The position numbers and the translations under genes were made by a program. A stretch of 63,819 nucleotides of DNA from a virus (Duplodnaviria; Caudoviricetes), in IMG/VR virus record IMGVR_UViG_3300042465_004622, positions 1 to 63,819 of that record; one strand, given 5' to 3'. Every line of letters begins with the position of its first letter. Within the stretch, counting starts at the first letter, position 1. The notes beneath the pieces are model-generated. The model saw only the letters and a list, made by a program, of their open reading frames with translations, was not told where the DNA came from and made no database searches. Positions 48,534-63,819 of this stretch are shown here, piece after piece.

Positions 48534-48773
48534 CTATTTAACAGAAATATATCGAGGTATCTCTTTTTGATCTTTGTCGTAACGCTTACCGAAAACAGTG
48601 TCAAAATACACATCCACCCCCGGCTGAGATTGGCTACTTGGTCGTTTCTCAAAATAGCTTGGCGCTACAAAAGCCGACGGTTTAGGTACTAAGATAACGT
48701 CTTCAAGTTCTGCGGTTTCCCACTCAGGGTTTATAGTCAGAAGTTCTTGTTTCATTGTGGGCTTGTTTGCCAT
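48534..48773 (-). CDS. Hypothetical protein
   Basis: ORF in operon context. Confidence 0.5.
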   Translation of the reverse strand: MANKPTMKQELLTINPEWETAELEDVILVPKPSAFVAPSYFEKRPSSQSQPGVDVYFDTVFGKRYDKDQKEIPRYISVK

Positions 48774-49279: not shown

Positions 49280-49280
49280 A

Positions 49281-50498
49281 TTAGCAAAAGTCGTCGTTTG
49301 GGTAAGCGGCTGAAACTCGGGCTTGAGCGATGGTGAAATAGGCTTTGTCCATCTCCATGCCGATGAAGTCGAATCCCTCTGCTCCGCAGGCTTTGCCTGT
49401 GCTTCCACTACCCATCCAAGGATCGAGCACCGTTCCTTCTGGAGGTGTGATGAGTCGGCAGAGGTAACGCATGAGGTCTGTTGGTTTCACTGTTGGGTGA
49501 TTATTCTTTACTGACTTGATGCTGTTTGTTCCGCTGGCAGCTTTATACTCTGTAACTCCACGCTTCAGTTGTGCTTGAGCTTGGTTGGATGCAGCTATGA
49601 AAGAATCATCAAGACCATCGCAGCCGTCGTTGCGGTCTGTTGAGTTGGTCTTGGCGCAGTAGAAAAAGCGGGCTGATGAGCCGCCATTGTCGTCGTGCCT
49701 ATATGTTACGTGCGGCGTTTCCCTGCCCTTAGCAACGCTTTTGAACTCTCCGTTGTTCCTTGGGGTGGATTTGCTTGAGGCCGTTTGCGGAAACAACCCA
49801 ACCACCTCGTCGCTTCCGTCGTGGATCAGGTTCGCAGGCCAGCGTCCTTGGGGTTGTTGGAACTCGCCTGCTCCGCCTTCGCGTTTGTATCTCCAATTCT
49901 CCGCGCCGTCATGTCTTTCGGAGCCGTCCTTTGCGTAGGCACCGCCGTTCAGGTTCTCTGTCGTACCTACTCGGCAAGCATCCACGTTAATCGCTCCCGT
50001 GTGCCACTTGAGCACGTTGTCCGCGACGGTGCCTTCGAGCGGCTTCCGCGCCAGCGTGATTGGTTCCAGTGCGGGTTTTAGTGCCGTGCCCCAGCCTTCC
50101 CACTCTTCTTCGAGTTTGTGCGATTTGGGGAACCCAGAACCGTACACCCATGCAACAAGGTCGCGAATCTCGAATCCTGCCAAGCGTATGCCGAGCGCCA
50201 TCAAGTCCTGTGTCCGTGTCCCAGCGAAAGCAAGAACGTGGCCTCCGGGTTTCAGGACACGGAACACTTCTCTCCATTGCACAGGTTGTGGAACGAAGTT
50301 GTCCCATGCTTTACCCATGAATCCGCTCTTGCTTTTTACGTCGTGGTGCCCGGTCTCCATCCAGTCGCGCAGCATGGCGAGTGCATCTGGCTCTTTGCCA
50401 AGTCCGTATGGTGGGTCTGTTACCACCGCGTCAACGCTGTTGTCTGGCAGCTTTTCCAAAAGCTCTAAGTTGTTTCCCTTTAGTAGTTGGTAAGTCAT
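49281..50498 (-). CDS. Beta-class N6A/N4C DNA methyltransferase
   Basis: VVTDPPY, RVLKPGG, HPTVKP, VLDPWMGSGST; ends ...NDDFC*. Confidence 0.92.
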   Translation of the reverse strand: MTYQLLKGNNLELLEKLPDNSVDAVVTDPPYGLGKEPDALAMLRDWMETGHHDVKSKSGFMGKAWDNFVPQPVQWREVFRVLKPGGHVLAFAGTRTQDLMALGIRLAGFEIRDLVAWVYGSGFPKSHKLEEEWEGWGTALKPALEPITLARKPLEGTVADNVLKWHTGAINVDACRVGTTENLNGGAYAKDGSERHDGAENWRYKREGGAGEFQQPQGRWPANLIHDGSDEVVGLFPQTASSKSTPRNNGEFKSVAKGRETPHVTYRHDDNGGSSARFFYCAKTNSTDRNDGCDGLDDSFIAASNQAQAQLKRGVTEYKAASGTNSIKSVKNNHPTVKPTDLMRYLCRLITPPEGTVLDPWMGSGSTGKACGAEGFDFIGMEMDKAYFTIAQARVSAAYPNDDFC

Positions 50499-50500
50499 AA

Positions 50501-51739
50501 TCAGCAAAAGTCCTCCGCTCCGGTTTCATCAGAAAACACGTTCGCCAGATTCTCCGAGCCATAAACAGGGCGTGGATCGTCAACGGAAACGAGCGTCGGC
50601 CCGCCCTCCGGCTTGACGATGAGTTTCTGAATTTCTCCCCATTCAGCTTTCTCGAAGTCGTGCTCGAACTCGGAAACTTGCGTCGGGGTGATCAGATCCT
50701 CAGTTATGATGTCCTCGCGTTTCAGCTTGGTCAGCAGCTTCTCTTTGGCGAGGTCGGGGTAGCCCCATTTTCGGTGTCCGCCTTTGCCCTTGACCAGCTT
50801 CAGGCCGGGTAGTGGTTTGCCGTTGAGAGCCATCGACGTTGCGTATTTCTCAGCGGAGGATAACCACTTTTTGATGTCGTCGATCTTGAGCACGATTTTG
50901 GAGAGAACGTCATCTGAGATGCTGTCAGCTTTCGGCAGCTTCGGCACTTCTCCGGTCGTGATTGTCTCCAGTGGTGTGTCGTCGAGGAGCCACTTTGTCC
51001 GGGCCTCGCAGAACGACTCGCAGGGGCAGAACTGACAGGTCTTGGTGCCTGGGCGGAACTCCAATGTGAGAGCTTTGGCTTGGATGTCCTCAGCAGGGCC
51101 GAGAACTCGGTCATCAGTGAACTGGACAAGCTCTTTGTAGTCAATGGTCCAAGTGCTCTGCTTATCACCTTGCCGAACGCGAGGTTGGTAGATGTGCATG
51201 TGAACCGCAGGCATCGGCTTGTTGGCATACCATTGCTTCATCGTGAGGTCTAACTGTTGGATCATCGACCGTGCATAGATCGCCATCTGTAGGTTCTCGA
51301 AAGCCGAGACTGCCACGCCCTGACCATATTTGAAGTCGGCAATGTGAACCCCGTCGTCGGCGATGCAGCAGAAGTCCACGAAGCCGTTACGGGCAGGCAT
51401 GTAGAACAGACTGACTTTCAACTCGCTCCACCATCTGTTACCCATGCCTGTGCGTTTGATGTGATCAGTGGCACCCGGAGCTTTCTTGTCGAGACAGAAA
51501 TCAACGAACGCCTGCGCGTGCTTCTTCATGTCCGGCGTGGCTTTGTCCGACAGCTTGGTCTTCTTGAAGAGTGCTTCAACGGCGGAGTGCGCGAACGTCC
51601 CTTCAACCGAGAACTCGGTGTCCTGCGGCGGTATGCGGTTGGCGTTGGCTACAACGTAGTGAGGTTGGGCTGTACACGAACTCCACGTACTCGCGGAACT
51701 GGCATTCAGGTTTAACTTTAAGTATCGGGATGTGCTCAT
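50501..51739 (-). CDS. Cas4-like PD-(D/E)XK exonuclease (DUF2800-like)
   Basis: EGTFAH, GFVD, ADFKYG, NLQMAIYA, HIYQPR, CQFCP..C; ends ...AEDFC*. Confidence 0.88.
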   Translation of the reverse strand: MSTSRYLKLNLNASSASTWSSCTAQPHYVVANANRIPPQDTEFSVEGTFAHSAVEALFKKTKLSDKATPDMKKHAQAFVDFCLDKKAPGATDHIKRTGMGNRWWSELKVSLFYMPARNGFVDFCCIADDGVHIADFKYGQGVAVSAFENLQMAIYARSMIQQLDLTMKQWYANKPMPAVHMHIYQPRVRQGDKQSTWTIDYKELVQFTDDRVLGPAEDIQAKALTLEFRPGTKTCQFCPCESFCEARTKWLLDDTPLETITTGEVPKLPKADSISDDVLSKIVLKIDDIKKWLSSAEKYATSMALNGKPLPGLKLVKGKGGHRKWGYPDLAKEKLLTKLKREDIITEDLITPTQVSEFEHDFEKAEWGEIQKLIVKPEGGPTLVSVDDPRPVYGSENLANVFSDETGAEDFC

Positions 51740-51799: not shown

Positions 51800-52474
51800 T
51801 TAGACTTCCTTCTGGTCCTCTTCGTTGGCGGCGAGATACTCACGGATCTTGGCCTCCATCTGACGCAACATAGTTGGGTCAGACATCTCGCGAGTCATCT
51901 TCTCGAAGCCGAGTGTGGTGTTGCGGAAATCAACAAGCAGCTTGGTGTACTTGGTGTCCTTGAGGGGCTTCATCAGATCAACGAGTTCAGAGCCGGACAG
52001 GTAAGGCTCCTCTTCGACAACTGGTTCTGGCGTTGGCTCGGGAGCAGGTGCTGCCTCAGCTTTTGCCTTGGGGCCGCGCTTCTTAGGTTCTGGTTTGTCT
52101 TCTGTTTCGGCGGGTGCCGATGTAGGTTCGCTGACTGGAGCAGAGCAACCGCCTTTGGCAGCGGTGTTGCGGTCGATAGCCTCGATCAGGGGTTTGACGA
52201 GGGTTTCAAAGATGTCGTTAAGCAGGGTATTCATAGGTTTGTCTGTATTTGTTTTTTGTTGTGGGTTTTCTGTCGCAGGTTGTGCTGCTACTGGAAATTG
52301 TTTTGTGTGTTCTGCATAGGCAGTCCAATAAGCGTCGGAAAACTCGCCGCCACGTTCGTTTGCGACATGGATGAGTAGAAACACGCTTTCTTTGTCGCGA
52401 AAGTCGTCACTCTCCCATTTCGCTTGGGACAGGCACTTGCGGTAAAATTCAATAGTGAAGTCGGCGGGTTGCAT
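51800..52474 (-). CDS. Hypothetical protein with a Pro/Glu-rich linker (possible second start at MNTLL)
   Basis: TAATG coupling to the upstream stop; directly upstream of the DUF2800-like gene. Confidence 0.6.
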   Translation of the reverse strand: MQPADFTIEFYRKCLSQAKWESDDFRDKESVFLLIHVANERGGEFSDAYWTAYAEHTKQFPVAAQPATENPQQKTNTDKPMNTLLNDIFETLVKPLIEAIDRNTAAKGGCSAPVSEPTSAPAETEDKPEPKKRGPKAKAEAAPAPEPTPEPVVEEEPYLSGSELVDLMKPLKDTKYTKLLVDFRNTTLGFEKMTREMSDPTMLRQMEAKIREYLAANEEDQKEV

Positions 52475-53271
52475 TAGCAAAAGTCCTCCTCGTCGTTTTC
52501 AAGGTTCACGTATTCCGTAGAGGATTCCGTCTTCTTCAAGCAGTTGGTAGCCTTCATCTTCAGCGTTGTCTGGCCCGATACAGTCGCAGTCGGCGTAATG
52601 CTCCGCGTGAACAGGGCACCAAGGTTCTCCGCAGCATTCACATTCTGGAAGTTCATGGGCGAAGACAATACGAACTCGCTCCACTGTTTTGCCATCGCGT
52701 TTGCGATGCCTTGAAAAGTCGCTGATCTGATTTTCCATCGGTCTTTTGAGGGTGGCAGGTTATACCAAGTTGGAAGCGAGTTTCCGCCTTTTGTGACGTG
52801 GCGAGTTCCTTTTCCAACCAAGTTTGTTGGTGTTATTGATGGCAGGTTTTTGAGCCAAAGGCACGTTGTTTTGGTAGCTTCATGCCCGTGCTCGTATGGC
52901 TGAATAATACAGTCAGGCTTCCTCCACACTGACGACATGATGCCTACTGGGTTTTCGATAGCAATTCGCGGGATTGGAGCGTTTGCTAATGCCATGAAGA
53001 AGTCGATGCCTTCTTGCTGCCTGCCGTCCGCTCGCTTTGCTGCAAAGTGCTTGGCTCCGCTGACGGCTAGATGTGTGCATGGTGGGAATGCAACCATCAT
53101 ATCCCATGAGTCATTCAGTAGTTGGAGAACATCGCCTTGAATATGAAACTCGCTACCGTCATCTGCTGGCAATAAATCGCAACTCCAGGCGTCGTGTCCA
53201 AGCTCTCTAAATGCTGAACGGACGGCTCCACTGTATTCACAAGCTATTAAAACTTTAAGTGGTTTATTCAA
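52474..53271 (-). CDS. Compact C5-cytosine DNA methyltransferase-like protein with a C-terminal extension
   Basis: KVLIACEYSG, AFPPCTHL (catalytic PC), IAIENP, KTTCLW, RSATFQGIANAMAKQW; TTG start overlapping the primase TGA; ends ...ENDEEDFC*. Confidence 0.8.
   Translation of the reverse strand: MNKPLKVLIACEYSGAVRSAFRELGHDAWSCDLLPADDGSEFHIQGDVLQLLNDSWDMMVAFPPCTHLAVSGAKHFAAKRADGRQQEGIDFFMALANAPIPRIAIENPVGIMSSVWRKPDCIIQPYEHGHEATKTTCLWLKNLPSITPTNLVGKGTRHVTKGGNSLPTWYNLPPSKDRWKIRSATFQGIANAMAKQWSEFVLSSPMNFQNVNAAENLGALFTRSITPTATVSGQTTLKMKATNCLKKTESSTEYVNLENDEEDFC
52499..52684 (-). CDS. Small Cys/His-rich protein nested in an alternative frame of the MTase C-terminus
   Basis: VERVRIVFAHELPECECCGEPWCPVHAEHYADCDCIGP..; GTG start where MTase homology ends. 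Confidence 0.5.
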   Translation of the reverse strand: MERVRIVFAHELPECECCGEPWCPVHAEHYADCDCIGPDNAEDEGYQLLEEDGILYGIREP

Positions 53272-55904
53272 CAAAAATCCTCCTCGTCGTTTTCTGGTTT
53301 CGGTTCTTTTCCTTCCAGTCGATCTCTTGCGATCTGGAATACTTCTGCGGGCATCTTGCCGTCGAACTTGCCCTGCTTGATCCACAGGTATCCTCTCATG
53401 CCGTCGATCATCGGTCGGCCCGGAACTCGCAGAAAGTGCTCTTCTCTGAGCAACTTACCAATACGTTGCGGACTCTCTTTGACCCCTTCCATGGTGAGTG
53501 CTCCTGAGAGGCTAGGCTCCCAGATCATGTCGTCTCTAAGCAGCGGTGACTCGGACTCGCGGATGGTGCGACGGATCGCTGAGGTGGCCTCGTCTGCGGA
53601 GTCTTCGATCATCTCTTCAAGATACTTGGTCTTCGGAGCGCGACCGTTGGCGTTGAAGCTCGGACTGATTTCCCACGTCTCGAAGAAGCTGCGGAGTCCG
53701 CCTCCAAGGTTAGCCAGCATCCCGAACATACGGTCGAAGTATCCTGGGCCGAGAGCAGCTACCTGTTCTTCAGTCTGAAGTTTGAGCTTCAGGACGAAGT
53801 AGCGTCGGCTACCTGACATCACCGCGAGCGCGTCGTGATGGTTGGTGAACATGATGTAGTTGGTGATGTTCCGACATTTCTTGGTGTCGGCATGTTTCCG
53901 GTTCACTGGGACGAAGTCGTCTGTGACCAGATCCTTCAACTTGTTCATCACGTCATGGCGGTTGTGTCCCGAGATGCGGACTTCACCGATGACCGTAATC
54001 TGAGATCCGACAGCCCATTCATTCCAGTTGCCTCGGATAGCTTCATTGTTGACGTACATCACGTTCTCTTCCCCGAGCAGCGTTCCAAGCAGGAGAGCCA
54101 GGAACGTCTTTCCGCAGCCTTCCGCTCCTTGGAAAAGGGGTGCCCAACGACATTTTTTACCGGGGTGCTGGACGTGGTAAGCGATGTAGTCGAGCACGAC
54201 TCTCTGGTATTCCGTCTCGATGATCAGATTGCGCAGATGCTCTTGGAAAATGGCTCCGGCTGCTTCAGCGTCGGACGCTTTGGGTTTTACGTGGCAAGCC
54301 CGGTAAGTGTTCACAAGTTTGAGACCGTTTGCGTCTTCGCTGTAAATTTCTTTGGGTGAGGTTGGATCGTAGGTCGTGTCATCGACCACTGGGCACTCGA
54401 TCTTGTTGAGCAGATATTGGTGAGGGAGAATCGGCGGGACATACAGAGCGGCATCGGACGTGTCTTTTCCCTGGGATTCGAGTTGCTCTGCGGTGTTGAG
54501 CAGGAAGCGAGAATACTCAGCATTGAAGGCTTCTTTCGTACGCCATTGGTGGGACGCTGGACGGAAAAACTGCTCGCGACAGGCGACGTAATACCACCCT
54601 TTCGTCCAAGCAGGGTCTTTCTTGATGGACTCTTCCGGTGTTTTTGACTTGAGTTGCGCTTTACGGAGCTTGTCGAGGTCTTGACGGAGATCTCCGAGGC
54701 GTCCTTTTTCCCCGATCTTGGTGAGTGCTCGCAGAATGGAGTTCAGCAGTGTGCCTTCCTCGACGTGAGTCAAAATAGGCAACTGAGCGATCTTTTCCAA
54801 CGCGATGTGCGTCATCTCATGGAACGTCTTGGCGGTGTCGTTGATCCAATCGTTGACGACTTTGAAGCAGTCTTCTTTGACCTTCCCTGCGTTCCAGCCT
54901 GCGTCCGCCGCACGTTTGATGAGGGTACGGATGGTGACGGGGACTCGACCTCTCGGGGTCGTATAGACTTGGTTCCACTTCGCCAGGGTTCCGTCTGGGC
55001 CAGGATAGCCATCACCTTCGCCAGACCACTTATCGAACAGTTCGTAGGCTGCGTCTTCCTGCTCAGTATCTGAGTATTGATGACGGAGTGCGCAGCATAC
55101 TTCAAACCACTCTTGATAGCCGCAGTTCGGTGACAAACTGTTGAGTGCCTCCACGACATCCTTGAACTCAACCCCCATCAGCGGTGCTCGGAGGTATTCG
55201 AGTCCGTCGTCTTCACTGTAAGTCTTTTTGCTCGACTTTTCGGGATTGATCGTCGCGTCTTGGATGTCGGAGAGTGTGAAGGCGTCACCCTTCAGGAAGC
55301 TGACCACCATGGGGTGCTCTGAATCAGGATCTTGATCCAAGAACAAGCTCGGGCAGATCATCGGCTGGTTCGGAGTCAACGACTCGCGGGTGATATTCGC
55401 CAGTCCAATTCTCGTCGCGATAGTCTTAACGGCAGCAGGGTAAGCCTCCAACGTGATGTTGTCTGCGTCCACCACGATCCGCATACGAGGCTTGGCAGGT
55501 GTCGAGCTTGCCGTCGTATAGGCTGCGAAGTTGAAGGGCCGCATGGCCTTCAGCAGGATGTCTGGGTTCGCCAGAAATGGGGCCGCAGGGCTAGTGCCAC
55601 CTTTCTCGGTGTCTAAGTCGAGGAAAAGCAGGTTACAGCAGTTGGCTTTGTCGGCGAACTGACGCTCGCGACTGGTCTCATCGTCTGAATAAACGCAGGC
55701 AACGAGGTAGGTCGTGTCTTTTGCAGACAGCCTCGCAGCTTTACCTTCCGACGTGTCAGAAGGTAGTTCATTGTATTCTTTCCGTGTCAGTTGCAGAGGG
55801 ACAGCAGTGTCGAGATGCTTGCGCACAAGCTCTGCGAACGTGCGGGCAGGTGATGCACGAACACGGTTGCTCTTGACTGAGCCACCATAATAATATCTGG
55901 GCAT
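53268..55904 (-). CDS. Primase-helicase (AEP-like N-terminus, PriCT-2-like domain, SF3-type NTPase)
   Basis: FLDLD, YTTASS..PRMRI, YQEWFEVCCAL..FDKWS, Walker A GAEGCGKT, FTNH, RRYFV; ends ...ENDEEDFC*. Confidence 0.9.
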   Translation of the reverse strand: MPRYYYGGSVKSNRVRASPARTFAELVRKHLDTAVPLQLTRKEYNELPSDTSEGKAARLSAKDTTYLVACVYSDDETSRERQFADKANCCNLLFLDLDTEKGGTSPAAPFLANPDILLKAMRPFNFAAYTTASSTPAKPRMRIVVDADNITLEAYPAAVKTIATRIGLANITRESLTPNQPMICPSLFLDQDPDSEHPMVVSFLKGDAFTLSDIQDATINPEKSSKKTYSEDDGLEYLRAPLMGVEFKDVVEALNSLSPNCGYQEWFEVCCALRHQYSDTEQEDAAYELFDKWSGEGDGYPGPDGTLAKWNQVYTTPRGRVPVTIRTLIKRAADAGWNAGKVKEDCFKVVNDWINDTAKTFHEMTHIALEKIAQLPILTHVEEGTLLNSILRALTKIGEKGRLGDLRQDLDKLRKAQLKSKTPEESIKKDPAWTKGWYYVACREQFFRPASHQWRTKEAFNAEYSRFLLNTAEQLESQGKDTSDAALYVPPILPHQYLLNKIECPVVDDTTYDPTSPKEIYSEDANGLKLVNTYRACHVKPKASDAEAAGAIFQEHLRNLIIETEYQRVVLDYIAYHVQHPGKKCRWAPLFQGAEGCGKTFLALLLGTLLGEENVMYVNNEAIRGNWNEWAVGSQITVIGEVRISGHNRHDVMNKLKDLVTDDFVPVNRKHADTKKCRNITNYIMFTNHHDALAVMSGSRRYFVLKLKLQTEEQVAALGPGYFDRMFGMLANLGGGLRSFFETWEISPSFNANGRAPKTKYLEEMIEDSADEATSAIRRTIRESESPLLRDDMIWEPSLSGALTMEGVKESPQRIGKLLREEHFLRVPGRPMIDGMRGYLWIKQGKFDGKMPAEVFQIARDRLEGKEPKPENDEEDFC

Positions 55905-55910
55905 TTGGGG

Positions 55911-56132
55911 CTATGCTCCCGTCAGGGTGTTGAGGGATACTCTAAGTGCTCTGGCGAGCTTGATCAGAGTAGTCGTGTTTGGTTGGCGAATACCTGACTC
56001 AACATCTGAGATTGTTCCGACACCTACTTCAGCTTTGACGTGTAACTGCACTATCGTAAGCTCACGCCACTGGCGAATGCTTCGGAGTCGTACGCCGATT
56101 GGTGTGGAGGAATCAAAGATTGGTTTTGCCAT
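55911..56132 (-). CDS. XRE/Cro-family HTH transcription regulator
   Basis: RLRSIR..LTIVQL..TISDVESG..PNTTTLIKLARAL. Confidence 0.9.
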   Translation of the reverse strand: MAKPIFDSSTPIGVRLRSIRQWRELTIVQLHVKAEVGVGTISDVESGIRQPNTTTLIKLARALRVSLNTLTGA

Positions 56133-56168
56133 AAGTTTCGATAAATTGAAACCATTATAGCTGATAGG

Positions 56169-56459
56169 TCAAACGAAATCGTCTTCCACCTCGACTTTCT
56201 TCGTCGCAGGTATTTTGGCGATCAGGATAGTGCGCCAGCCTCCGTGCTGCCCGAGGGAGACGCGATCTAGGAGCGCGACGTTTTTGCCTGAGTTGGTGAG
56301 TTTGACAATAGCCTCGTTCACTTTGGGTAAAGCCAGGTGAACGATCTCAGGGTAAACGGTGTAGCCCTCCGCTTCAGGGAATAGCCAAATGTCGCAGTCT
56401 GGCGCGGCTCGTCGCATCTCAGCGACTTTGTTTTTGATGAATTGGTCGGCGGTGTCCAT
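56169..56459 (-). CDS. Hypothetical protein ending in the variant tail EDDFV
   Basis: ORF in operon context. Confidence 0.6.
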   Translation of the reverse strand: MDTADQFIKNKVAEMRRAAPDCDIWLFPEAEGYTVYPEIVHLALPKVNEAIVKLTNSGKNVALLDRVSLGQHGGWRTILIAKIPATKKVEVEDDFV

Positions 56460-56460
56460 A

Positions 56461-56751
56461 TTAAGTGTCTTTGTTGTGGATGAAGGGTTCGAGTTGGGAT
56501 GATATATCGTTGCAGAGTTTGTCGTGCGCGGTGGCGTCTGGCGCTCCGTCAGCGCAGGTTTCCGTTTCGTAGTAGATTTTGCGGATGACTTTTTTCAGCT
56601 CTGCGAGTTCCGCTTTGGCTGCGTTGAGTTCGCGTTCTAGCTGGCGGGCGAATTCGCCATCAACAAGATCTTTCTCCATTAGCTTTTTTCGGCCCGCATA
56701 TTCGGCATAGACATCAAAAGACTTGTCATCTGTTCTCGGTGTATCGCTCAT
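56461..56751 (-). CDS. Hypothetical protein
   Basis: MSDTPRTD..FARQLERELNA pattern common in small phage proteins. Confidence 0.65.
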   Translation of the reverse strand: MSDTPRTDDKSFDVYAEYAGRKKLMEKDLVDGEFARQLERELNAAKAELAELKKVIRKIYYETETCADGAPDATAHDKLCNDISSQLEPFIHNKDT

Positions 56752-57074
56752 GGCTGTTCTCCTTTCGCTTTGGCGATTGCTGCCTTTACTTTGTCTTGCA
56801 GCCAGAAAGCTGCCGATCCGTTCCACTCCCAAAGGTCGCTGTCCATGATGGCTTCCAATGCCTCCAGAAGATCAGGAGCCGCTGCGATTAGGCGGGCGTT
56901 TGCCATAGCCTCTTCGGGCGTTCTTCCGCGAACACCGCTGTCGTCGTTAGTATCCTCGGCATTTCCCCAAATGACGATGCTGAAAAACTTACCAAAAACA
57001 TTAGCTTCAATGCCTGGGTGTTCTGTGGGTAGTTCTTTCTCAATAAACCACTCTCCCTGTGTATGTTTGCTCAT
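56748..57074 (-). CDS. Hypothetical phage protein
   Basis: MSKHTQGEW..ANARLIAAAPDLLEAL motif. Confidence 0.7.
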   Translation of the reverse strand: MSKHTQGEWFIEKELPTEHPGIEANVFGKFFSIVIWGNAEDTNDDSGVRGRTPEEAMANARLIAAAPDLLEALEAIMDSDLWEWNGSAAFWLQDKVKAAIAKAKGEQP

Positions 57075-57511
57075 GGCTGCTCTCCTTTCGCGGCAGCGAT
57101 TAGGCGGGCGCGGAAATCCTCCATAGCTTCGCCTAGAGTCTTTCTCCCGGGGAGAAACAACTTAGTTGAAAGAAGGCTATCTACCTCCTCCATACGCTTC
57201 ACAGCTTCGTCAATCGGGTTAGCTACTGGCTCAAGGTTTGCGGATTCGTAGGCGGCTAGAGCAGTAAAAGCTGTATCACCTGTCCATGAATAGTCTCGCT
57301 GTCCAGTTTCTTTAATCCATGCGATTTCTTTCAAAGCATCAGCCAACCTCTCTAACAGTATCGCCTGCCGTTGGATCGTCTGCACGTCGCGGGCTGAGGC
57401 TGCTAGGTGTGACTCTCTGGCTTCGGCTAGTCGCTCGACGAGTTGGTCAAGCTCGCGCTTCTCGACAAGCTGAATCAGCCTGTCGCCGTCTTGGTATGGG
57501 TAGGTTTTCAT
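57071..57511 (-). CDS. Hypothetical protein
   Basis: ATGA-coupled; ends KGEQP like its neighbour. Confidence 0.6.
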   Translation of the reverse strand: MKTYPYQDGDRLIQLVEKRELDQLVERLAEARESHLAASARDVQTIQRQAILLERLADALKEIAWIKETGQRDYSWTGDTAFTALAAYESANLEPVANPIDEAVKRMEEVDSLLSTKLFLPGRKTLGEAMEDFRARLIAAAKGEQP

Positions 57512-58323
57512 GCTGATTGAAGGCAGTTGGTTGAAATTGAAACTGTTTTGACTTCTCCGTGGTAGTCATACGCGCAAAGGAACTTAGGCCCCATGTCTTG
57601 CATGACCGTCATCTTCGGCCCTCCGCTCTTGAGCGTTACCACGTCACCAACTTGTGGCGTCCATTCTGGCAATGAAATTGGTTTCGTTACCAGAGGCTCT
57701 GGCGTTGGCTCGTCTGCGTGCGCGGCCTTCACAGATGGCTTGCAGCCAGATCGGCATGGATAGTGGCCGTGGTCTTCTTCCTCAAATCCAGAGCCTTCAC
57801 AAAACAAGCATTTTGCTTTCGCAGCCAGAAGCTGGATGTCGGCGAAGTGGGTGTCTTTTTTGTTTGTGAAAGATCCTAAAATCCAGTCTTCATCTTCAAG
57901 CCATCCAGTCACTCTCACGCACCCTTCCGGCACCTCGCCAGCCTCAGCGAGGGGGCGGAGTTGGGAGAGGGATTGTTTAGGCTCGGTCAGCCTAGCCTTT
58001 TCTACTAGCAAGATAAGCCGTTGCCACTCTTTGCAAGCGTCCTCAACTGCTTTGCGGGTGCCGTGTTCGGCCTGATAGTGCCCGCCATCTCGATGTATGA
58101 CCGCTAACAGATTTAGTAGCATCGACTCTTCATCCATTGGCTCAGGCAGCGAGGCGAGGGCGGCCTTGATTAGGCTGAGACGGGAAGGTGCTTCGTTCCT
58201 CCAACGATTGTCTTCTGGATCTAAAATAAGTAGTCCGCCAACGTCTTTGTGTTCTTCGTTTATTTTATTACATGCCTCGTCAATAGCGGCCTGTAGTTGG
58301 GTGTTTGTGTAGTTGTGTTTCAT
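57508..58323 (-). CDS. Mosaic hypothetical protein with a C-terminal DUF2158/YodC-like domain
   Basis: VGDVVTLKSGGPKMTV near the C-terminus; internal CxxC. Confidence 0.65.
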   Translation of the reverse strand: MKHNYTNTQLQAAIDEACNKINEEHKDVGGLLILDPEDNRWRNEAPSRLSLIKAALASLPEPMDEESMLLNLLAVIHRDGGHYQAEHGTRKAVEDACKEWQRLILLVEKARLTEPKQSLSQLRPLAEAGEVPEGCVRVTGWLEDEDWILGSFTNKKDTHFADIQLLAAKAKCLFCEGSGFEEEDHGHYPCRSGCKPSVKAAHADEPTPEPLVTKPISLPEWTPQVGDVVTLKSGGPKMTVMQDMGPKFLCAYDYHGEVKTVSISTNCLQSA

Positions 58324-58327
58324 AGTG

Positions 58328-58621
58328 TTAAGCGAAGTCTGGGTCGTTTTGTTGTGCGTGTTTGCGTCGAAGGAGAGTGATATAGGCCGGACTGCATCCA
58401 AGGCGCTCGGCGTTGGCTGTTTGAGAGAGTGACCAGTCGAGCAGGCTCAGATCGTACTTCTGGGGGCGACCGGAGCCTGGACTGCGCGGTCCTTTAGGCT
58501 TGCCATGAATTCGACGGTATTGTCCTACCGTCGCAGATGTGGCTTTGTACTTGATACCGAGCGCTTGGTTGCTGTTATGCTTCCATTCGAGATCGGTAAT
58601 TACTTGGAGAGAGGAACTCAT
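58328..58621 (-). CDS. Small double-HTH-like protein ending in the variant tail DPDFA
   Basis: Two W-x-x-S(N/Q)..A..(Y/L) units, e.g. LDWSLSQTANAERLGCS. Confidence 0.6.
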   Translation of the reverse strand: MSSSLQVITDLEWKHNSNQALGIKYKATSATVGQYRRIHGKPKGPRSPGSGRPQKYDLSLLDWSLSQTANAERLGCSPAYITLLRRKHAQQNDPDFA

Positions 58622-58626
58622 TGGTT

Positions 58627-58655
58627 ACTTTAAGCGTTCGATTTCCTGAAATCAA
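58627..58655 (-). promoter_or_regulatory. Sigma70-like promoter
   Basis: TTGATT-17nt-TAAAGT; shares 19 bp with the promoter at 59056-59084. Confidence 0.6.
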
Positions 58656-58879
58656 ATTTCATGTGTTTTTATTTTAAGTCCCCCGATGTCGAAAGCACAA
58701 CAGATAGCTCTGTGAATGTGCTCTACCGTGACTTTCGGGAGTCCTGTCTTTTCAGTTAAAAAGCAAAGTACAGCTTCATGGTCCTCTGTTGCTCCGTAAC
58801 CTGCCATTAAGCATATGATCTGAGCGTTTATGAGCCACATAGGATCTTCGTCGTCGAGTGTGTTTTCGAGTTTTTCCAT
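58652..58879 (-). CDS. Hypothetical protein
   Basis: ORF from MEKLE. Confidence 0.5.
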   Translation of the reverse strand: MEKLENTLDDEDPMWLINAQIICLMAGYGATEDHEAVLCFLTEKTGLPKVTVEHIHRAICCAFDIGGLKIKTHEI

Positions 58880-58886
58880 ATTAGTT

Positions 58887-59045
58887 TCAATCGTTGTGCC
58901 ACCACAAAGGGCGACGGGTTGTGAGTTGTTGGATGCGTTGATCCTGCTTTTTCTTCCGTTCATCGCTTTGCCTCCGTTTCCGGTCTTCAATGGTAGCGAA
59001 TAGACGGTCGAGTTTGAGTTGTAGAGGGTCGGGTTCTAGGTTCAT
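58887..59045 (-). CDS. Small basic hypothetical protein
   Basis: ORF from MNLEP directly downstream of a promoter. Confidence 0.45.
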   Translation of the reverse strand: MNLEPDPLQLKLDRLFATIEDRKRRQSDERKKKQDQRIQQLTTRRPLWWHND

Positions 59046-59055
59046 AGTTTCAGAG

Positions 59056-59084
59056 ATTCTACTCTTTCGATTTCCTGAAATCAA
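59056..59084 (-). promoter_or_regulatory. Sigma70-like promoter
   Basis: TTGATT-17nt-TAGAAT. Confidence 0.65.
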
Positions 59085-59107
59085 GAGACAAAAGTTTTTT
59101 TATTCGT

Positions 59108-59389
59108 TCACCGCTTTGAGTCGTCGTTTTCGAGTTCAGGGTTGCTGGGTGACGGTGTGGATTGAGTTACAGATTCAGGTTCAGGCAACCACTCCAGTTT
59201 CCATCGGAAAAAGTCCGCTGTGAACCATTGCCTGCCGTGTCGCGGGCGTTTTGGATGCCCGAGCGGGTAGATTGAATGCAGCTCCTGGGTGTGTTCGTCC
59301 TTGTATAAGGTGACAGGCCCGCCCTTCTCGCGCTTGGCGTAGAGCGTCGGGTGCTTGGTTTCTAGGAAGCGTTTCGAGTATTTAGGCAT
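59108..59389 (-). CDS. Hypothetical protein
   Basis: ATG just downstream of a repeat core. Confidence 0.5.
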   Translation of the reverse strand: MPKYSKRFLETKHPTLYAKREKGGPVTLYKDEHTQELHSIYPLGHPKRPRHGRQWFTADFFRWKLEWLPEPESVTQSTPSPSNPELENDDSKR

Positions 59390-59745
59390 GATCGTATGGT
59401 TTTGGGTTGTTCACCGCTTTGGGTCGGTGTTTGCTTAGGGAGGCTTAGACCGTTGATCCAACGGACGGGTATTGAGTATCTGTTCACTCCGTTTTTTATT
59501 ATGTAGGCTGCGGCCCAATGTCGCATGAACATATACAGCTTGTCGCGCCCTTCTTCACTTCTCAGGGTGGTGCGAAACCACTTATTGTGCTGGTATATTG
59601 TTTCTGCTTTCTCCACTAGATGCGCCGTTACTTGGTCCGTTAGCTGCTTGGCTCCTGTGATTGCATATACCTCCGCGCCTACGCTTTCAGCGATGAGCCA
59701 AGGGATGAGAGGTGTTTCATCTTCGATGATGTATTTCTTTTTCAT
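59362..59745 (-). CDS. Hypothetical protein
   Basis: ATG about 10 nt downstream of a repeat core. Confidence 0.6.
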   Translation of the reverse strand: MKKKYIIEDETPLIPWLIAESVGAEVYAITGAKQLTDQVTAHLVEKAETIYQHNKWFRTTLRSEEGRDKLYMFMRHWAAAYIIKNGVNRYSIPVRWINGLSLPKQTPTQSGEQPKTIRSCLNTRNAS

Positions 59746-59824
59746 GAGGGTATGTCGTTCACCGCTTTGGGTCGGTTTTTGGGACTGATATTTAGCTGTT
59801 TGATGGGTGGGAGTGGGTTACAGA

Positions 59825-60061
59825 CTACTGTTTCACGTAGTCTAGGTATCCGCGAAGTATTTGGATCTGTATGTTTGCCTTACTGTCTGGCTTGATTTTA
59901 CCTTCGATGCTTTGTTGCCAGCGCCAGCTTGAAAGATCCTTCTTGGTGAAAAAGTGGTGCCAGCGATTAGCTGCTAGGATCTCAGCTCTTAATCTCTGGA
60001 CCTCAGTTTTTACTTCTTGTAGCCAAATTGCGTATTCGTGAGGGTGTGACAGGCATTTCAT
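59825..60061 (-). CDS. Hypothetical protein
   Basis: Fills the space between two 69-bp units. Confidence 0.6.
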   Translation of the reverse strand: MKCLSHPHEYAIWLQEVKTEVQRLRAEILAANRWHHFFTKKDLSSWRWQQSIEGKIKPDSKANIQIQILRGYLDYVKQ

Positions 60062-60133
60062 AAAATAATTTCGTTCACCGCTTTGGGTCGGTTTTCGGAG
60101 TTGGTATTTACCTGTTTGATGGATGGGAGTGAG

Positions 60134-60346
60134 TTACAGAACCACGGTTCCTGTCGCGATGTTGACCAGTTCTAGGCCGCGCCCGAAGTCGGTCACGTCG
60201 TACAGGTTGCCTTTTTCGTCTATGATTTTGACGAAATCGCCATCGCCTCGCCTCACGCTTTCGCGCACCTGTTTGATGTATCGCGGGCAGGTCGAGTTTA
60301 TGGTGCGCGTTTCGCCGTGGTAGTTATTTTTGATTGTGAGTTTCAT
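60134..60346 (-). CDS. Hypothetical protein
   Basis: From MKLTIK; its stop TAA lies inside the repeat box. Confidence 0.6.
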   Translation of the reverse strand: MKLTIKNNYHGETRTINSTCPRYIKQVRESVRRGDGDFVKIIDEKGNLYDVTDFGRGLELVNIATGTVVL

Positions 60347-60450
60347 TGTAGGGTGATGCTGTGTTTTAGGTGTGGACTTTCCGTTCACCGCTTTGGGTCG
60401 GTGTTTGCGGGCTGAATTGAGGTGGATGAAGGTGTGGAGTGAGTTACAGA

Positions 60451-60777
60451 CTAAGCGCTCTGACTGAGCCACCAAGCGGCGGCGATTATCGCGCCCCAGG
60501 TGACTAAGCAGGCCAAGATGAGGGGCCGGAAGCTAGCGCGGTCGCCTGCCTGCGCGTCGAAGTAGTGCTTGAGCTGGTGATTTTCCAGCCGTTGAGGGAA
60601 CAAGTGGCGCTTGTCCGTTATTCGTACAGCCGGGGCCGGAGCCGGTGGCGCTGGATCGCTTGGAAGATAGGACGGGATTCCAGTCTCACGGGCCGAATTG
60701 AGACCCTTTTTAGCTAGTCTGAGACGTAGCCGGAAGCTGGCCCGCTGGATGTGGAGAGGGGAGGGTGTGGAGTTCAT
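60451..60777 (-). CDS. Hypothetical protein with a C-terminal TM helix
   Basis: LILACLVTWGAIIAAAWW. Confidence 0.55.
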   Translation of the reverse strand: MNSTPSPLHIQRASFRLRLRLAKKGLNSARETGIPSYLPSDPAPPAPAPAVRITDKRHLFPQRLENHQLKHYFDAQAGDRASFRPLILACLVTWGAIIAAAWWLSQSA

Positions 60778-61046
60778 GCGAGTACTTGAGCTAGGTTCTC
60801 GATTTTGATGTGAAAGGTGCAAACGGTACCCTTGTCGCCCTGCCAAACGTACGTACCTTCTTCGTGGAGTTTGTATTCGTTAGGTACATAGCTACTTTGG
60901 GCAGAAACCCGGCGCATGTAGTTTTCCCCGGCTTTCGTGCCTTCCTGCTTGGCTAGTTTCTCCACTTCTCGCCTGGCGCTATTCCAGGCTTGTTTCGTGG
61001 CTACGTGTTCACCGTTTAGACTTATGGAGTATTTAGGGCGTGTCAT
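60774..61046 (-). CDS. Hypothetical protein
   Basis: From MTRPKY; ATGA-coupled to the next gene. Confidence 0.55.
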   Translation of the reverse strand: MTRPKYSISLNGEHVATKQAWNSARREVEKLAKQEGTKAGENYMRRVSAQSSYVPNEYKLHEEGTYVWQGDKGTVCTFHIKIENLAQVLA

Positions 61047-61051
61047 GGCGG

Positions 61052-61231
61052 TTATTTTGTGAATGAGATTTCTCCTTTTTGGTTCCTCTTGGCGCTTGTC
61101 ACCGTCGTACGATCCAGTTTCGGCCCTCGGTACGTGACAGTGTACCATCCCGGGTGAATGCGTTTGATGCCTGCCGCGTGTAGGATTTCGGAGTTATCGC
61201 CAGTGCTGGCGTTTATTTGCATGGTTTTCAT
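61052..61231 (-). CDS. Hypothetical protein
   Basis: ATG downstream of a repeat core. Confidence 0.5.
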   Translation of the reverse strand: MKTMQINASTGDNSEILHAAGIKRIHPGWYTVTYRGPKLDRTTVTSAKRNQKGEISFTK

Positions 61232-61309
61232 GGATTTAGTGCGTGGTTGTCCGTTCACCGCTTTGGGGCGGAGTTTGGAACTGGTTTCTATGTGTCGGGT
61301 TTCTGTGGA

Positions 61310-61882
61310 TCATTCAGCACTGCAAAGGGCAGCTTCCAGCCTTTCGGCTTCTTCGCGTTCCTCAGCTTCCAGCCTTTCGGCTTCGTACTGCTCACGTGCC
61401 TCGCGCTCATCGTCTGCCGTGCTTTCGGCGAGGTCGTCGGCTGCGCTTGCCGCTTCGGTTTCAGTTTCGTAGATGTCTCCTTCGATAGCTGAGGCCATGC
61501 CCTCGCCCATAGTCCACCCTGCCATGAACCCGCGACCGCGTGGCAGACGAAAGACGAGACCTCTGATTTTAGTATCCTGATAATCATCTGCATACCATCC
61601 CGTGTGATTGATGCGCGTACCGGCTACTTCGTCGCAGTATTGCCAGCGCAGCGCGAAAGGTGCGGACCTGTCCCCGAGATAAAAACCTTTGCCTTTTCCG
61701 GCCTGCTCGGGCTTTGGTGCGTGATAGCAAGGTCCGCAAACGGGTTGCTTGTGCTGCTTGATGCGGTCCGATTTTTGACCGCGTGGCAGTGTCACCACGT
61801 AGCGAGGCCAGGAGAAGCTGGCAAAAGTAAACTCGGGGGTGGAGATGGGGAAATGCGTAGTCAGTGGTTTGAGTGTGCTCAT
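61310..61882 (-). CDS. Hypothetical protein with an acidic coiled-coil tail
   Basis: 190-aa ORF; INHTGWYADD..RGLVFRLP. Confidence 0.65.
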   Translation of the reverse strand: MSTLKPLTTHFPISTPEFTFASFSWPRYVVTLPRGQKSDRIKQHKQPVCGPCYHAPKPEQAGKGKGFYLGDRSAPFALRWQYCDEVAGTRINHTGWYADDYQDTKIRGLVFRLPRGRGFMAGWTMGEGMASAIEGDIYETETEAASAADDLAESTADDEREAREQYEAERLEAEEREEAERLEAALCSAE

Positions 61883-61932
61883 AGTGTCTTCCTTCTTTGT
61901 TGCTTTGTTTCTTTGGCCTAGCTTTGTGCTGG

Positions 61933-61981
61933 CCTCGCTTCCACCCTCTGAGATGTGAAGTCTAGAGGGCGGGGTGCGAGG
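61933..61981. other. Intergenic hairpin
   Basis: CCTCGC/GCGAGG outer and CCCTCT/AGAGGG inner stems. Confidence 0.45.
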
Positions 61982-61985
61982 TCAA

Positions 61986-62177
61986 TTAGGCGGCATCACA
62001 ATACTCCTGGTAACCTTCACCCGTTTTGAGCCACAGAGCAGCCAGGGCGGATTTTATAGGACTCCAGCCGTACTCATCCTGTAGCGCATGGCGGATTGCG
62101 TTCTGACTGTGGCGCTTGGCCTGTTTTCGGGCCTCGCTGAGGTTGCCGTTGATTAGATTTTCTAGGAGTGAGTGCAT
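61986..62177 (-). CDS. Hypothetical protein
   Basis: From MHSLLENLINGN. Confidence 0.55.
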   Translation of the reverse strand: MHSLLENLINGNLSEARKQAKRHSQNAIRHALQDEYGWSPIKSALAALWLKTGEGYQEYCDAA

Positions 62178-62181
62178 GGTC

Positions 62182-62340
62182 TTATTTTGTCCAATGTTTA
62201 CAAGCGCGGGTTGAAATGTAAAAGCGGGCGGAGGTGTCCGAAATCTGGTACTCTCTGACCATCTCACGGGCTTCTTTGCGCGTGTCGAATTGGTCCACAG
62301 TCTCAAGGTCTTTTTTGTCTTTGCGTTGGATGTAGTACAT
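62182..62340 (-). CDS. Small hypothetical protein
   Basis: MYYIQRKD..ETVDQF..EAREMVREY..YISTRACKHW. Confidence 0.6.
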   Translation of the reverse strand: MYYIQRKDKKDLETVDQFDTRKEAREMVREYQISDTSARFYISTRACKHWTK

Positions 62341-62351
62341 ATTAGTAGAGG

Positions 62352-62783
62352 TTAGTCGTTTTCTGTCAGGTCTTGGAAGGCACGCGCTACCTCCTCGCCT
62401 GCATACCATGCTAGCGCGTTGAGCACGTTCTGCGTTCCATCCTCACTGCGTCCGCCGTACAGCGCAGTACAGATTTCGCTTTCCGTCGGTTTGTTGTTTC
62501 GGAAACAGCCGAAATTTTGGATCATTTCGACAACGGACGAACCGAAATCAGCCGCCTGTTCGTTTGCCAGCGCTTGAATATAAGCTCGGTTTCGTTTGGC
62601 AAAAGCTAGCGTGTCAACGTAATAAATGAAGCCGTGAAACCCGCCGTCTATTCCATGGTTCGCGATGTCTGGGGCGGCATTTACAAAGTTTTTCCAGCCG
62701 CCGAGTTGCCGCACGACGGCGCGAATGAGGGGGGCGGGTACGCTGCTGCTTTCGATTAGTTTTTTGAGGGTATTGGTTTTCAT
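62352..62783 (-). CDS. Hypothetical phage protein, first gene of the - arm
   Basis: DIANHGIDGGFHGFIYY..NALAWYAGEEVA pattern. Confidence 0.7.
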   Translation of the reverse strand: MKTNTLKKLIESSSVPAPLIRAVVRQLGGWKNFVNAAPDIANHGIDGGFHGFIYYVDTLAFAKRNRAYIQALANEQAADFGSSVVEMIQNFGCFRNNKPTESEICTALYGGRSEDGTQNVLNALAWYAGEEVARAFQDLTEND

Positions 62784-62869
62784 GGTGTGGGGGTGTGTGG
62801 AGGTGTTTGGTTTGGTTTGCGCTCGTTTCGTTTGTCGAACGTGGGACCATTAAACCACACGGCCCAAAC

Positions 62870-63591
62870 TTTATCAACTGTTTTTTACTAAAATATCTAT
62901 TTTTTATTTTGGGGCGGGTTAATTGGTTGAAAATGAATAAAAAAGCGTCGGTCAGAAGTTTTTTCAACTTCTGACCGGAGGTGCCAAAAAACTGTCAAAA
63001 GTTAGGACAAAACCACTTTTTGGCAGCTTTTTTGTCTTGCGGTCAGCTTTTGACCAAATTTTACCTGGTCGCAGTATATCAAGCCAGTAGCCGCTAACAT
63101 ATAAGATAAAGAGGGATTTAGACCATTTTGTTGTCGGTGGCAGGCTTTGACACTACCAGAAAATTTTTTGACAGTGATTTATGGCAGTGTTTTAAAACTT
63201 CTGACCGAAGTTTTGACACATCATCATTGGTTAGGGAAAACATCTTGGAACCCTTATTCTACGGGGCTTGCAGAGTTTTGACTGTTTTTTATTTAATAAG
63301 TAGTTAGTTACTAATTGTCTAGATGTCAAAATATTTGAACGGTTTACATACAGTAATGAAAAGGAAATCGTGGTCTTATATCAATAAGGTATGTATGTAT
63401 ATCATCACGTTTTGTAATCCGCATCTATGGTACAAACTGCGCAAAACTTTTGGTAATTGGACAATGTAACTTTTTTACTGTTATTTTTTTATTCAGAAAG
63501 TCTAGCTTGTCGCTTTTTTAGTTAGGCTTGAACGTATAAAATCCGCGCATATATGGTCAGCATGGATATATTAACTAGATGGTATGGTGTG
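62870..63591. other. AT-rich non-coding region with inverted and direct TGAC-containing repeats (candidate origin or packaging control region)
   Basis: No ORF; 12-bp inverted repeat CGGTCAGAAGTT/AACTTCTGACCG near 62949; several TTTGAC/GTCAAA copies. Confidence 0.5.
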
Positions 63592-63819
63592 GCTGCCTGC
63601 TGCCTGCTGCCTGCTGCCTGCTGCCTGCTGCCTGCTGCCTGCTGCCTGCTGCCTGCTGCCTGCTGCCTGCTGCCTGCTGCCTGCTGCCTGCTTCCTGCTG
63701 CCTGCTGCCTGCTGCCTGCTGCCTGCTGCCTGCTGCCTGCTGCCTGCTGCCTGCTGCCTGCTGCCTGCTGCCTGCTGCCTGCTGCCTGCTGCCTGCTGCC
63801 TGCTGCCTGCTGCCTGCTG
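63592..63819. repeat. Tandem heptamer array (GCTGCCT)n, about 32 units, at the right contig end
   Basis: Same unit and orientation as the left end; one variant unit GCTTCCT at 63690-63696. Confidence 0.98.

Follow-up and report, generated by a model that had tools for sequence, protein, structure and literature searches.

The early regions of phage genomes hold most of the unknown phage genes, many of them likely to act against host defences, and how these genes are acquired and expressed is an open question. It is raised in compact form by a locus in the 64-kb genome of an uncultured freshwater phage (IMG/VR record IMGVR_UViG_3300042465_004622), which was analysed whole; its 63,819 base pairs (bp) are called the window throughout. 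Here a run of small early genes is punctuated by copies of a 69-bp element, the unit, in which two short conserved boxes are separated by a diverged spacer. What is this unit, and what does it do for the genes that it separates? Comparison of the window with its relatives identifies the unit as a conserved joint of an early-gene cassette array, always on the coding strand and confined to the array. It is an unusual joint: it has no promoter or hairpin, its length is fixed to the base across diverged phages and one copy lies inside a gene.

A unit of two boxes between small early genes

When up to 3 mismatches are allowed, the 20-nucleotide (nt) core of the unit, which reads CGTTCACCGCTTTGGGTCGG on the + strand, matches the window six times, on one strand only (59105, 59408, 59756, 60072, 60382 and 61252), and 6/6 matches fall within 59.1–61.3 kb, the early small-gene array. 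No match appeared in any of 100 dinucleotide shuffles and 0 were expected, which confirms the six occurrences reported in a first-pass annotation of this DNA. That annotation had counted two degenerate copies; there are in fact three, with 1, 1 and 2 mismatches, beside three exact ones. On the coding (−) strand, an upstream motif, TCTGTAAC (box 1), starts at 60450, 60140, 59824 and 59173. In all four of these copies the offset from the start of box 1 to the start of the core is exactly 49 nt, and the 69-bp length first proposed for them therefore holds. One further TCTGTAAC occurs in the window, on the + strand at 49549.

The individual copies, all on the − strand, differ in completeness. Unit 1 (61252–61320) has a core with 1 mismatch (61271–61252) and has lost box 1 in the window genome; its counterpart in L085, one of the related loci (L numbers) described below, retains box 1 as TCTATAAC at the 49-nt offset. 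Units 2 (60382–60450; box 1 at 60450–60443, exact core at 60401–60382), 3 (60072–60140) and 4 (59756–59824) are complete. A core-only copy with 1 mismatch (59408–59427) sits within the 3′ end of the open reading frame (ORF) at 59745–59362, ahead of an ATG at 59389; the gene downstream of it has a full, chimeric unit in L112 and L128. Unit 6 (59105–59173), with 2 mismatches in its core, is the array's last. An ATG had been predicted 10–35 nt after the core, and this is true of five copies (20, 35, 10, 10 and 18 nt, the last of these being the core-only copy). The sixth (59124–59105) has no gene next to it and is followed instead, 20 nt downstream, by a sigma70-like promoter, TTGATT-17-TAGAAT (59056–59084, −).

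Counted along the array, N cassettes are set between N+1 units of one orientation, with 1–3 genes per cassette. Stop codons of the preceding genes often belong to the joint: TAG abuts box 1 of units 2 and 4, TAA lies within box 1 of unit 3, and the ORF at 59389–59108 runs through unit 6 to a TGA inside the core. A coding explanation of the length (69 = 23 × 3) was nevertheless rejected as a general account, because two frames of the unit are closed by stops (positions 5 and 64) and the ends of the upstream ORFs are scattered: of 44 such ORFs, 11 stop immediately ahead of box 1, 9 within it, 10 at the TGA of the core and 14 elsewhere.

Both boxes and their distance are conserved among relatives

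Unit arrays were found in the window and in 15 further loci, some of which clearly come from the same or nearly the same phage. Seven related viral loci were found through their primase, whose identity to that of the window is 99% in L085, 83–84% in L086 and L087 and 37% in L089 and L090. Twenty-four sequencing runs were used as assembled contigs (run X9, labelled RNA-Seq, is probably DNA), and those with window sequence are freshwater or lake metagenomes. L084 carries 7 units, L085 carries 5 and an additional copy in a gene, g10 (see below), and L088 carries 5 with box 1 and one doubtful core-only match; in all three loci every unit lies upstream of primase and on the primase strand. In the complete relative G005, 7/8 matches of the unit's 11-mer (at most 1 mismatch) fall within the array.

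The spacing was examined with a pattern in which TCTGTAAC and AAGCGGTGAAC are separated by a free gap of 44–54. In viral contigs, 9/9 matches, from 4 contigs, had a gap of 49. In metagenomes, the pattern matched 53 times in 45 stretches, 28 times at gap 49; inspection identified 19 of these 28 as units, with a C/A-rich spacer and a CCGNC-type core, and the 9 others, like all 25 matches at other gaps, as unrelated sequences from metagenome contigs. Among 69 units with full flanks, box 1 (7/8 letters or better) stands at 49 only in 55 and at 48 in 1 (L127), and it is missing from 13, so that the offset is 49 nt in 55/56 boxed units. The two-site element with constrained spacing that was first proposed is therefore upheld: both boxes and their offset are conserved and the spacer has diverged. 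In 46 non-redundant units the spacer consists of 36% A, 38% C, 10% G and 16% T, and the median pairwise identity is 47% for the spacer and 85% for the core, in which AAGCGGTGAAC is nearly invariant. Box 1 has the consensus TCTRTRAC followed by a C-rich tail, the distance from core to ATG ranges from 7 to 77 nt, and in close relatives the changes between counterpart units are confined to the spacer. These alignments indicate purifying selection on box 1, on the core and on the distance between them, and not on the sequence of the spacer.

The two boxes are not of equal standing. Among the core copies, nine distinct ones have no box 1 at the 49-nt offset, a count in which L127 has box 1 at 48 and the L088 copy at 5093 is doubtful, and box 1 without a core was never seen among the aligned units. 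Because core-only copies stay with the downstream gene and no lone box 1 occurs, the comparison argues that the core is the primary, indispensable part of the unit, tied to the gene that follows it.

No units were present in the sequence examined of L086, L087, L089 and L090, of which L086 and L089 end before the array position; in L087, 5.2 kb of upstream sequence is free of units, yet the g10 gene with its unit-like stretch is present. In reference genomes the core pattern gave 48 single matches across many phyla, with about 35 estimated by chance, and 0/48 had box 1 at 49. Origin from a host repeat or a prophage was rejected on this ground, the matches being near the chance number and none of them boxed. 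With one 19-base pattern, the arrays can be retrieved across an entire clade of freshwater phages, and with them a pool of orphan genes that are mobile.

Cassettes are gained, lost and exchanged at units

The cassette map of the relatives has a common order in which single cassettes are present or absent, and gene content changes at unit boundaries, as the first-pass annotation had anticipated. L085 is without exactly one 316-bp cassette, which carries a 78-amino-acid (aa) gene, and its single unit aligns with both flanking units of the window. L084 shares with the window the gene before unit 2 and the whole of that unit, and divergence begins right after GGTGAAC; it also shares the 78-aa gene and about 19 nt before the core of that gene, upstream of which there is another gene and no box 1. 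The same locus has other genes at two joints and is without the 93-aa gene. In L112 and L128 the 127-aa gene is missing, and a chimeric unit of unchanged length is present, in which the 5′ half matches that of window unit 4 and the 3′ half that of unit 2. Finally, a contig from run X2 joins 60135 to 59429 by way of 41 other letters, with two cassettes skipped. Ends of similarity (stretches of at least 150 bp at 80% identity or more) also speak for exchange at units: they lie in units in 42/182 cases overall, against 6.8% expected by length, and in 42/106 within arrays, against 20% expected, at a density of 3.8 ends per kb inside arrays and 1.4 outside.

Across these cases the crossover points vary: they lie at the 3′ end of the core, about 6–19 nt before the core or, in the chimeric unit, in mid-spacer. 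Varying crossovers and in-register chimeric units argue for homologous, not site-specific, recombination, and on this comparison exchange at units is homologous and uses them as conserved patches. The idea that the units are recombination sites that shuffle genes can accordingly be kept in part: cassettes do change at units, but the exchange is not site-specific, crossovers vary and no recombinase was found. In a scan of 52 different ORFs against Pfam or PHROGs (some against only one of the two; the remaining ORFs include a few of more than 100 aa), there was no match to an integrase, an RNA polymerase, a sigma factor or a NusG-like protein.

No recognizable promoter or fold in the unit

A promoter scan of 55500–63819 placed no sigma70 site inside any unit, and no hexamer pair is present in the unit consensus; the scan returned just two promoter-like sites, 59084–59056 (−) and 63458–63487 (+), both outside units. 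RNA folding was likewise not significant, with z-scores from −1.67 to +1.10 across the 6 units. The consensus fold is a 4-bp stem of −3.4 kcal/mol, and the recurrent feature is a 4–5-bp stem (ACCG/CGGT) with an 8-nt loop in the core, which corresponds to a short inverted repeat, CACCG, 8 nt, CGGTG. Box 1 and the core end are direct, not inverted, repeats, and the whole unit is not palindromic. A structured RNA was rejected on the fold z-scores and the weak consensus stem, and an Rfam search of 55900–63600 at E values up to 1 gave 0 matches. Promoter scan and fold scores thus agree with the first-pass annotation, which had seen neither a sigma70 consensus nor a strong hairpin.

Other known signals fit no better. 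Readings of the core or box 1 as Shine-Dalgarno-like, sigma54, extracytoplasmic function (ECF)-type, Bacteroidota-type or extended −10 elements, made by eye against the usual consensuses, were rejected for misfits in spacing, and GGAG is absent from the unit ahead of the ATG. Promoters of the N4 type, which go with a giant virion RNA polymerase, are hairpins with a 5–7-bp stem and a 3-nt loop. The unit has a 4–5-bp stem and an 8-nt loop, and a 2982-aa protein of the phage has neither a polymerase family match nor a structure-databank match. CRISPR repeats measure 23–47 bp and are separated by spacers of similar size; the units measure 69 bp, with 240–870 bp of coding sequence between them. The array is not CRISPR, nor are its joints canonical attC sites, and in both respects the initial description was correct.

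Transcription signals around the array

Promoter-like sequences lie beside the units. Upstream of the array, TTGATA-17-TTTAAT (62849–62877, −), a sigma70-like promoter read by eye, has TG before its −10 and A-rich sequence upstream, and downstream of it come a C/A-rich leader and the first early gene (62783–62352); the site is absent from the scan list because its −10 is without A at position 2. A strong terminator-like hairpin (62949–62977, −), with 12 perfect pairs and a T run, is the sole one on the − strand in 55500–63819, and there is no terminator-like site on that strand between 62.9 and 55.5 kb. The hairpin lies in an AT-rich non-coding region of about 700 bp (62880–63590) with repeated and inverted CGGTCAGAAGTT and TTTTGACA motifs, possibly an origin, or else a control or terminal region.

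At the other end of the array, the promoter behind the last unit recurs in the same arrangement in 8 sequences, with an A-tract between the core and the −35. In four relatives (L088, L100, L125 and L126), a TTGATT-17-TACA(G/T)T promoter reaches position 1 or −2 of the unit, and the unit would then be the leader, or 5′ untranslated region, of that transcript. In the window, the −35 behind the last unit overlaps a near-palindromic, operator-like 19-mer, TTGATTTCAGGAAATCGAA, which has two exact copies (59084–59066 and 58655–58637) where 0.02 were expected. The second copy (site 58627–58655, −), before the gene at 58621–58328, has TAAAGT 17 nt later, and each copy overlaps a sigma70-like −35. They look like repressor operators, perhaps for the 97-aa protein encoded at 58621–58328, which is conserved, has no family match and was called a helix-turn-helix protein in the first-pass annotation, or for an HTH_3 protein (56132–55911). 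The 19-mer was observed in the window and in the relatives L079, L084, L085, L088, L095, L112, L127 and L128.

Shine-Dalgarno sites are generally missing from the genes of this phage and its relatives, and the leaders are C/A-rich (for example, 62848–62784 and 1792–1858), as the coding strand of the window is A- and C-rich. Leaders and gene starts together point to a host that would initiate translation without Shine-Dalgarno pairing. Since C/A-rich leaders are general, the composition of the unit would reflect the local style of untranslated RNA, and the two boxes are what sets it apart.

A unit copy inside the gene g10

A degenerate seventh unit, which the first-pass annotation did not list, lies at 58957–59025 (−), where TCTACAAC is followed by CGGAGGCAAAGCGATGAACG at the 49-nt offset. 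It is in frame within a 52-aa ORF, g10 (59045–58887), and the unit-like 69 bp encodes the N-terminal half of the g10 protein; the frame in which box 1 gives TAA reads CAA here. Copies of g10 are also found in L095, in L087 and in L125, where 19/20 positions of the core are canonical. Between the window and L087 the differences in this stretch fall, by reading, mostly at third codon positions (synonymous) and the protein is conserved, from which g10 is judged to be a real gene. Its spacer is no closer to the unit spacers than control windows are (best likeness 0.53; controls, 95th percentile 0.50 and maximum 0.62). With the spacer likeness at control level, derivation is supported neither of the units from g10 nor of g10 from a unit.

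Comparison with described systems

In role, the closest described system to which the unit can be likened is the promoter-early stem-loop (PeSL) element of T4-type phages, a motif defined in the reports consulted by a strong sigma70-like promoter and a stem-loop terminator (PMC2839356, PMC4122927). As described there, PeSLs share with the units a repeated occurrence between genes, conservation over tens of bases and a place beside the orphan early genes of a hyperplastic region (PMC2839356, PMC4122927). They resemble them too in that relatives differ by insertion, deletion or replacement of motif-bounded genes, with crossovers that vary within the motif (PMC2839356, PMC4122927). The anatomy is different. 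Both of the parts that define a PeSL in these accounts were tested for, and the unit has neither the sigma70-like promoter nor the stable stem-loop, which would act as terminator or attenuator; its two boxes span a constant 69 bp, and sigma70-type promoters stand next to it as elements of their own. The PeSL picture also includes mini-circles, formed by recombination between neighbouring motifs.

The start-associated sequences (SAS) of Cluster K mycobacteriophages are 13 bp long, contain a Shine-Dalgarno core and stand 3–7 bp from the start codon, and the extended form (ESAS) is an inverted repeat with a variable spacer (PMC3203893). Going by that account, SAS and ESAS share with the unit that they are clade-specific, asymmetric repeats in one orientation that precede non-structural genes from various families, that a search of host-type genomes did not find and that in a subset have a second upstream element, and neither a function nor a binding partner is established there for SAS and ESAS or here for the unit (PMC3203893). 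Unlike the SAS so described, the unit has its core 7–77 nt from the ATG and no Shine-Dalgarno sequence, and its second box is a direct repeat at a fixed distance.

A third comparison, with ops (operon polarity suppressor) elements, is an analogy of mechanism only. The ops element, GGCGGTAGCGTG, is read by RfaH-type NusG paralogues, and the 12-nt GGCGGTAGnnTG has essential G4, G5, A7 and G8, according to the study cited (PMC5995543). As portrayed in that study, ops and JUMPStart are short invariant elements of the non-template strand in the transcribed leaders of operons without Shine-Dalgarno sites; ops is orientation-specific, can form a tiny hairpin and has GCGGT in common with the unit core (PMC5995543). 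The core, however, reads AAGCGGTGAACG and has G and A at the positions given as the essential A7 and G8, so that the unit is not an ops element, and no NusG-like gene is among the scanned ORFs of the phage.

A tentative role for the unit

The account that we favour, though tentatively, is that the unit is a transcribed, cis-acting expression element that doubles as a homology patch for cassette shuffling, similar to a PeSL in role and different in anatomy. On this account, host RNA polymerase would start at sigma70-type promoters and transcribe the units within a polycistronic early mRNA, and one sequence-specific factor would read each unit in cis, during or after transcription. That the length is fixed across diverged phages, with no promoter or hairpin, points to a putative sequence-specific partner. 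By analogy with ops or nut sites, this factor could load on the elongation complex or the non-template strand, a mechanism suited to genes that have no Shine-Dalgarno sites. The message of each cassette might instead be released by processing at the unit. As a repeated and oriented sequence, the unit would also allow ordinary homologous recombination to delete, insert and swap cassettes, as PeSLs do in T4-type phages; the phage encodes exonucleases and a single-stranded DNA (ssDNA)-binding protein. A joint of this kind separates the expression signal from the promoter and could serve to test the expression of genes without ribosome-binding sites.

Several observations weigh against this account. 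On the expression side, no trans-acting factor for the unit was identified, and a phage-specific promoter would just as typically show a contiguous invariant block of 11–20 nt that precedes each cassette and varies in its distance from the ATG. The presumed first promoter of the early transcript (62877–62849) has a non-consensus −10, was read by eye and is not conserved in form in the relatives. In the four relatives whose promoter ends at the unit, most of box 1 would fall outside the RNA, which fits a role of box 1 at the level of DNA. On the recombination side, the figures for ends of similarity given above are indicative only, because the sequences are related, unit likeness draws ends to unit edges and p-values are overstated. 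The other 64/106 ends within arrays fall outside units, and the early region also has gene insertions or deletions at sites without units (58621–58886 and 60773–61043), so that gains and losses of genes do not depend on units.

The main rival, serious if rather doubtful and already among the options of the first-pass annotation, holds that the unit is a dedicated promoter for a polymerase other than the host sigma70 holoenzyme, in which the core is the promoter, box 1 an upstream site and shuffling a by-product. The reader of such a promoter might be a phage sigma factor or activator made from immediate-early genes, an injected enzyme or a host alternative sigma factor. Much of the anatomy suits this: the invariant block is contiguous (11–20 nt), faces the gene and stands 7–77 nt before the ATG of every cassette, each unit serves 1–3 genes, core-only copies stay with the downstream gene, and promoters are typically built with a fixed spacing. 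The factor could be encoded among the four conserved genes that separate the first promoter from the array, and the 2982-aa injected-type polyvalent protein is mostly unannotated. The search for the reader points the other way, since the 52 different ORFs scanned include no RNA polymerase or sigma factor, and the 2982-aa protein matches just ART-PolyVal and a DarB-like family, with a weak LPD38 look-alike. By reading, −35 and −10 hexamers are missing from the unit, as is a correctly spaced ECF-type −10, and a near-canonical copy lies within coding sequence; the copy in g10 was counted for a transcribed element and against a sigma70-type promoter. Moreover, if the unit were a promoter, it would be redundant with the sigma70-like promoters that directly precede units in 4 relatives and, in 8 sequences, directly follow the last one. 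It is these sigma70-type promoters around and before units, together with the failure to find a polymerase or sigma factor, that make a promoter less likely to us than a transcribed element.

More specific, and in our view unlikely, is the proposal that a dedicated factor of this clade reads the 20-nt core together with the box 49 nt upstream, on DNA or in the transcription complex, and so licenses expression of each orphan early cassette in a host that dispenses with Shine-Dalgarno sites. If it is true, the array has a phage counterpart of ops/RfaH-type or nut/N-type control at every joint, and its cassettes are portable between phages. It would then be a new kind of cassette system, in which expression and mobility are joined without promoter, terminator or integrase.

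An integron-like, site-specific recombination site, in which a putative recombinase would act on the inverted repeat of the core with box 1 as an accessory site, is highly unlikely. The layout of the array invites it (one unit more than there are cassettes, all facing the same way, and stop codons that touch box 1 or fall within it), as do the 4–5-bp inverted repeats around 8 nt in the core and a fixed spacing that recalls the accessory sites of recombinases. Like attC, the unit follows the stop of each cassette ORF in a promoterless array of small genes, and the stop is often inside the 5′ box. The resemblance ends there. An attC site is an imperfect palindrome (R''-L'' ... L'-R') that varies in length and folds; the unit is neither palindromic nor folding, and its box 1 and core end are direct repeats. 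Whereas attC recombines at one fixed point, the position of the crossover at units differs from case to case and chimeric units exist. An attC array needs an IntI integrase beside it, and neither this nor any other site-specific recombinase is among the 52 scanned ORFs, some ORFs of more than 100 aa lying outside the scan.

Scarcely probable is a binding site that acts at the level of DNA, apart from expression, in genome entry, in replication or partition, or in Chi-like protection and stimulation of recombination. Such a site would explain the strict orientation, the location of the array 1.6–3.8 kb from the 700-bp AT-rich non-coding region and the enrichment of similarity breakpoints at units. 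The core contains AGCGG, extended to GAAGCGG in some relatives, and these words resemble Chi sites of Firmicutes, a likeness that extends over only 5–7 nt. Nothing supports the role in genome entry suggested in the first-pass annotation, and the contig closes on a tandem heptamer, which does not reveal the physical ends of the genome. A DNA-level role also fails to account for the precise placement of copies between genes, for the tie of the core to the gene downstream and for the conservation of 20 nt and a second box at a fixed spacing.

Least credible is that the units are functionless remnants of repeated Campbell-type insertions of circular cassettes, kept alike by gene conversion: that one unit is part of a real gene, g10, and that in-register chimeric units show frequent exchange would fit, but conversion would homogenise whole units, whereas spacers are 47% identical while boxes and length are kept, counterparts in close relatives change in the spacer only and the g10 spacer is no more unit-like than control windows.

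Cassette genes and genome context

The seven small cassette genes of the window (61231–61052, 61046–60774, 60777–60451, 60346–60134, 60061–59825, 59745–59362 and 59389–59108, all −) are orphans, with no match in Pfam or PHROGs. The 190-aa gene that precedes the first unit (61310–61882, −) belongs to phrog_33651, and a language-model search for look-alikes of its product gave no usable lead. It is one of the conserved genes before the array, as are those at 62783–62352 and 62340–62182. A distant blastn search with 58800–61600 found no close relative among GenBank phages.

Genes lie on the + strand from 0.15 to 34 kb and on the − strand from 63 to 34.6 kb. By Pfam and PHROGs, the − strand set includes a primase-helicase, a family A DNA polymerase, an SNF2 helicase, exonucleases, an Enc34-type ssDNA-binding protein, several DNA methyltransferases and the large terminase; a search for tRNA genes found 0. 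The phage has at least five methyltransferase genes (48752–50507, 52474–53385, 16138–16752 and 38097–38669), of which three or more are of the DNA-methyltransferase type, a number that suggests heavy investment in escape from restriction. The tandem heptamer GCTGCCT occupies both ends of the contig, with 18 copies at 1–126 and 32.6 at 63592–63819 (99–100% matches), so that the 'direct terminal repeats' of the record are the two ends of one simple tandem array. As the contig closes on this heptamer, the terminal repeat of the record does not settle the physical ends of the genome or its completeness.

The 2982-aa polyvalent protein (25079–34027, +) matches ART-PolyVal (residues 1442–1582, below the Pfam cut-off) and a DarB-like family (1589–1993), and a sequence search against solved structures gave 0 matches. 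Its C-terminal third was placed with LPD38-type polyvalent-protein clusters by the language-model look-alike search, weakly, at scores of 0.92–0.93, and the protein probably enters the cell together with the DNA. Two proteins of about 1000 aa (13127–16135 and 17579–20650, +), with DUF5122 beta-propeller repeats and Ig-like (ASH/DUF1573-type) domains, are probably receptor-binding parts of the tail; a tandem repeat rich in threonine and glutamate lies at 15878–16123. In L087, where the array would be, positions 1040–1360 hold a tRNA-like 3′ half followed by three copies of TTT(C/A)(A/T)GTATTACATTAA(A/G)TC, which may be an inserted element or an att-like site.

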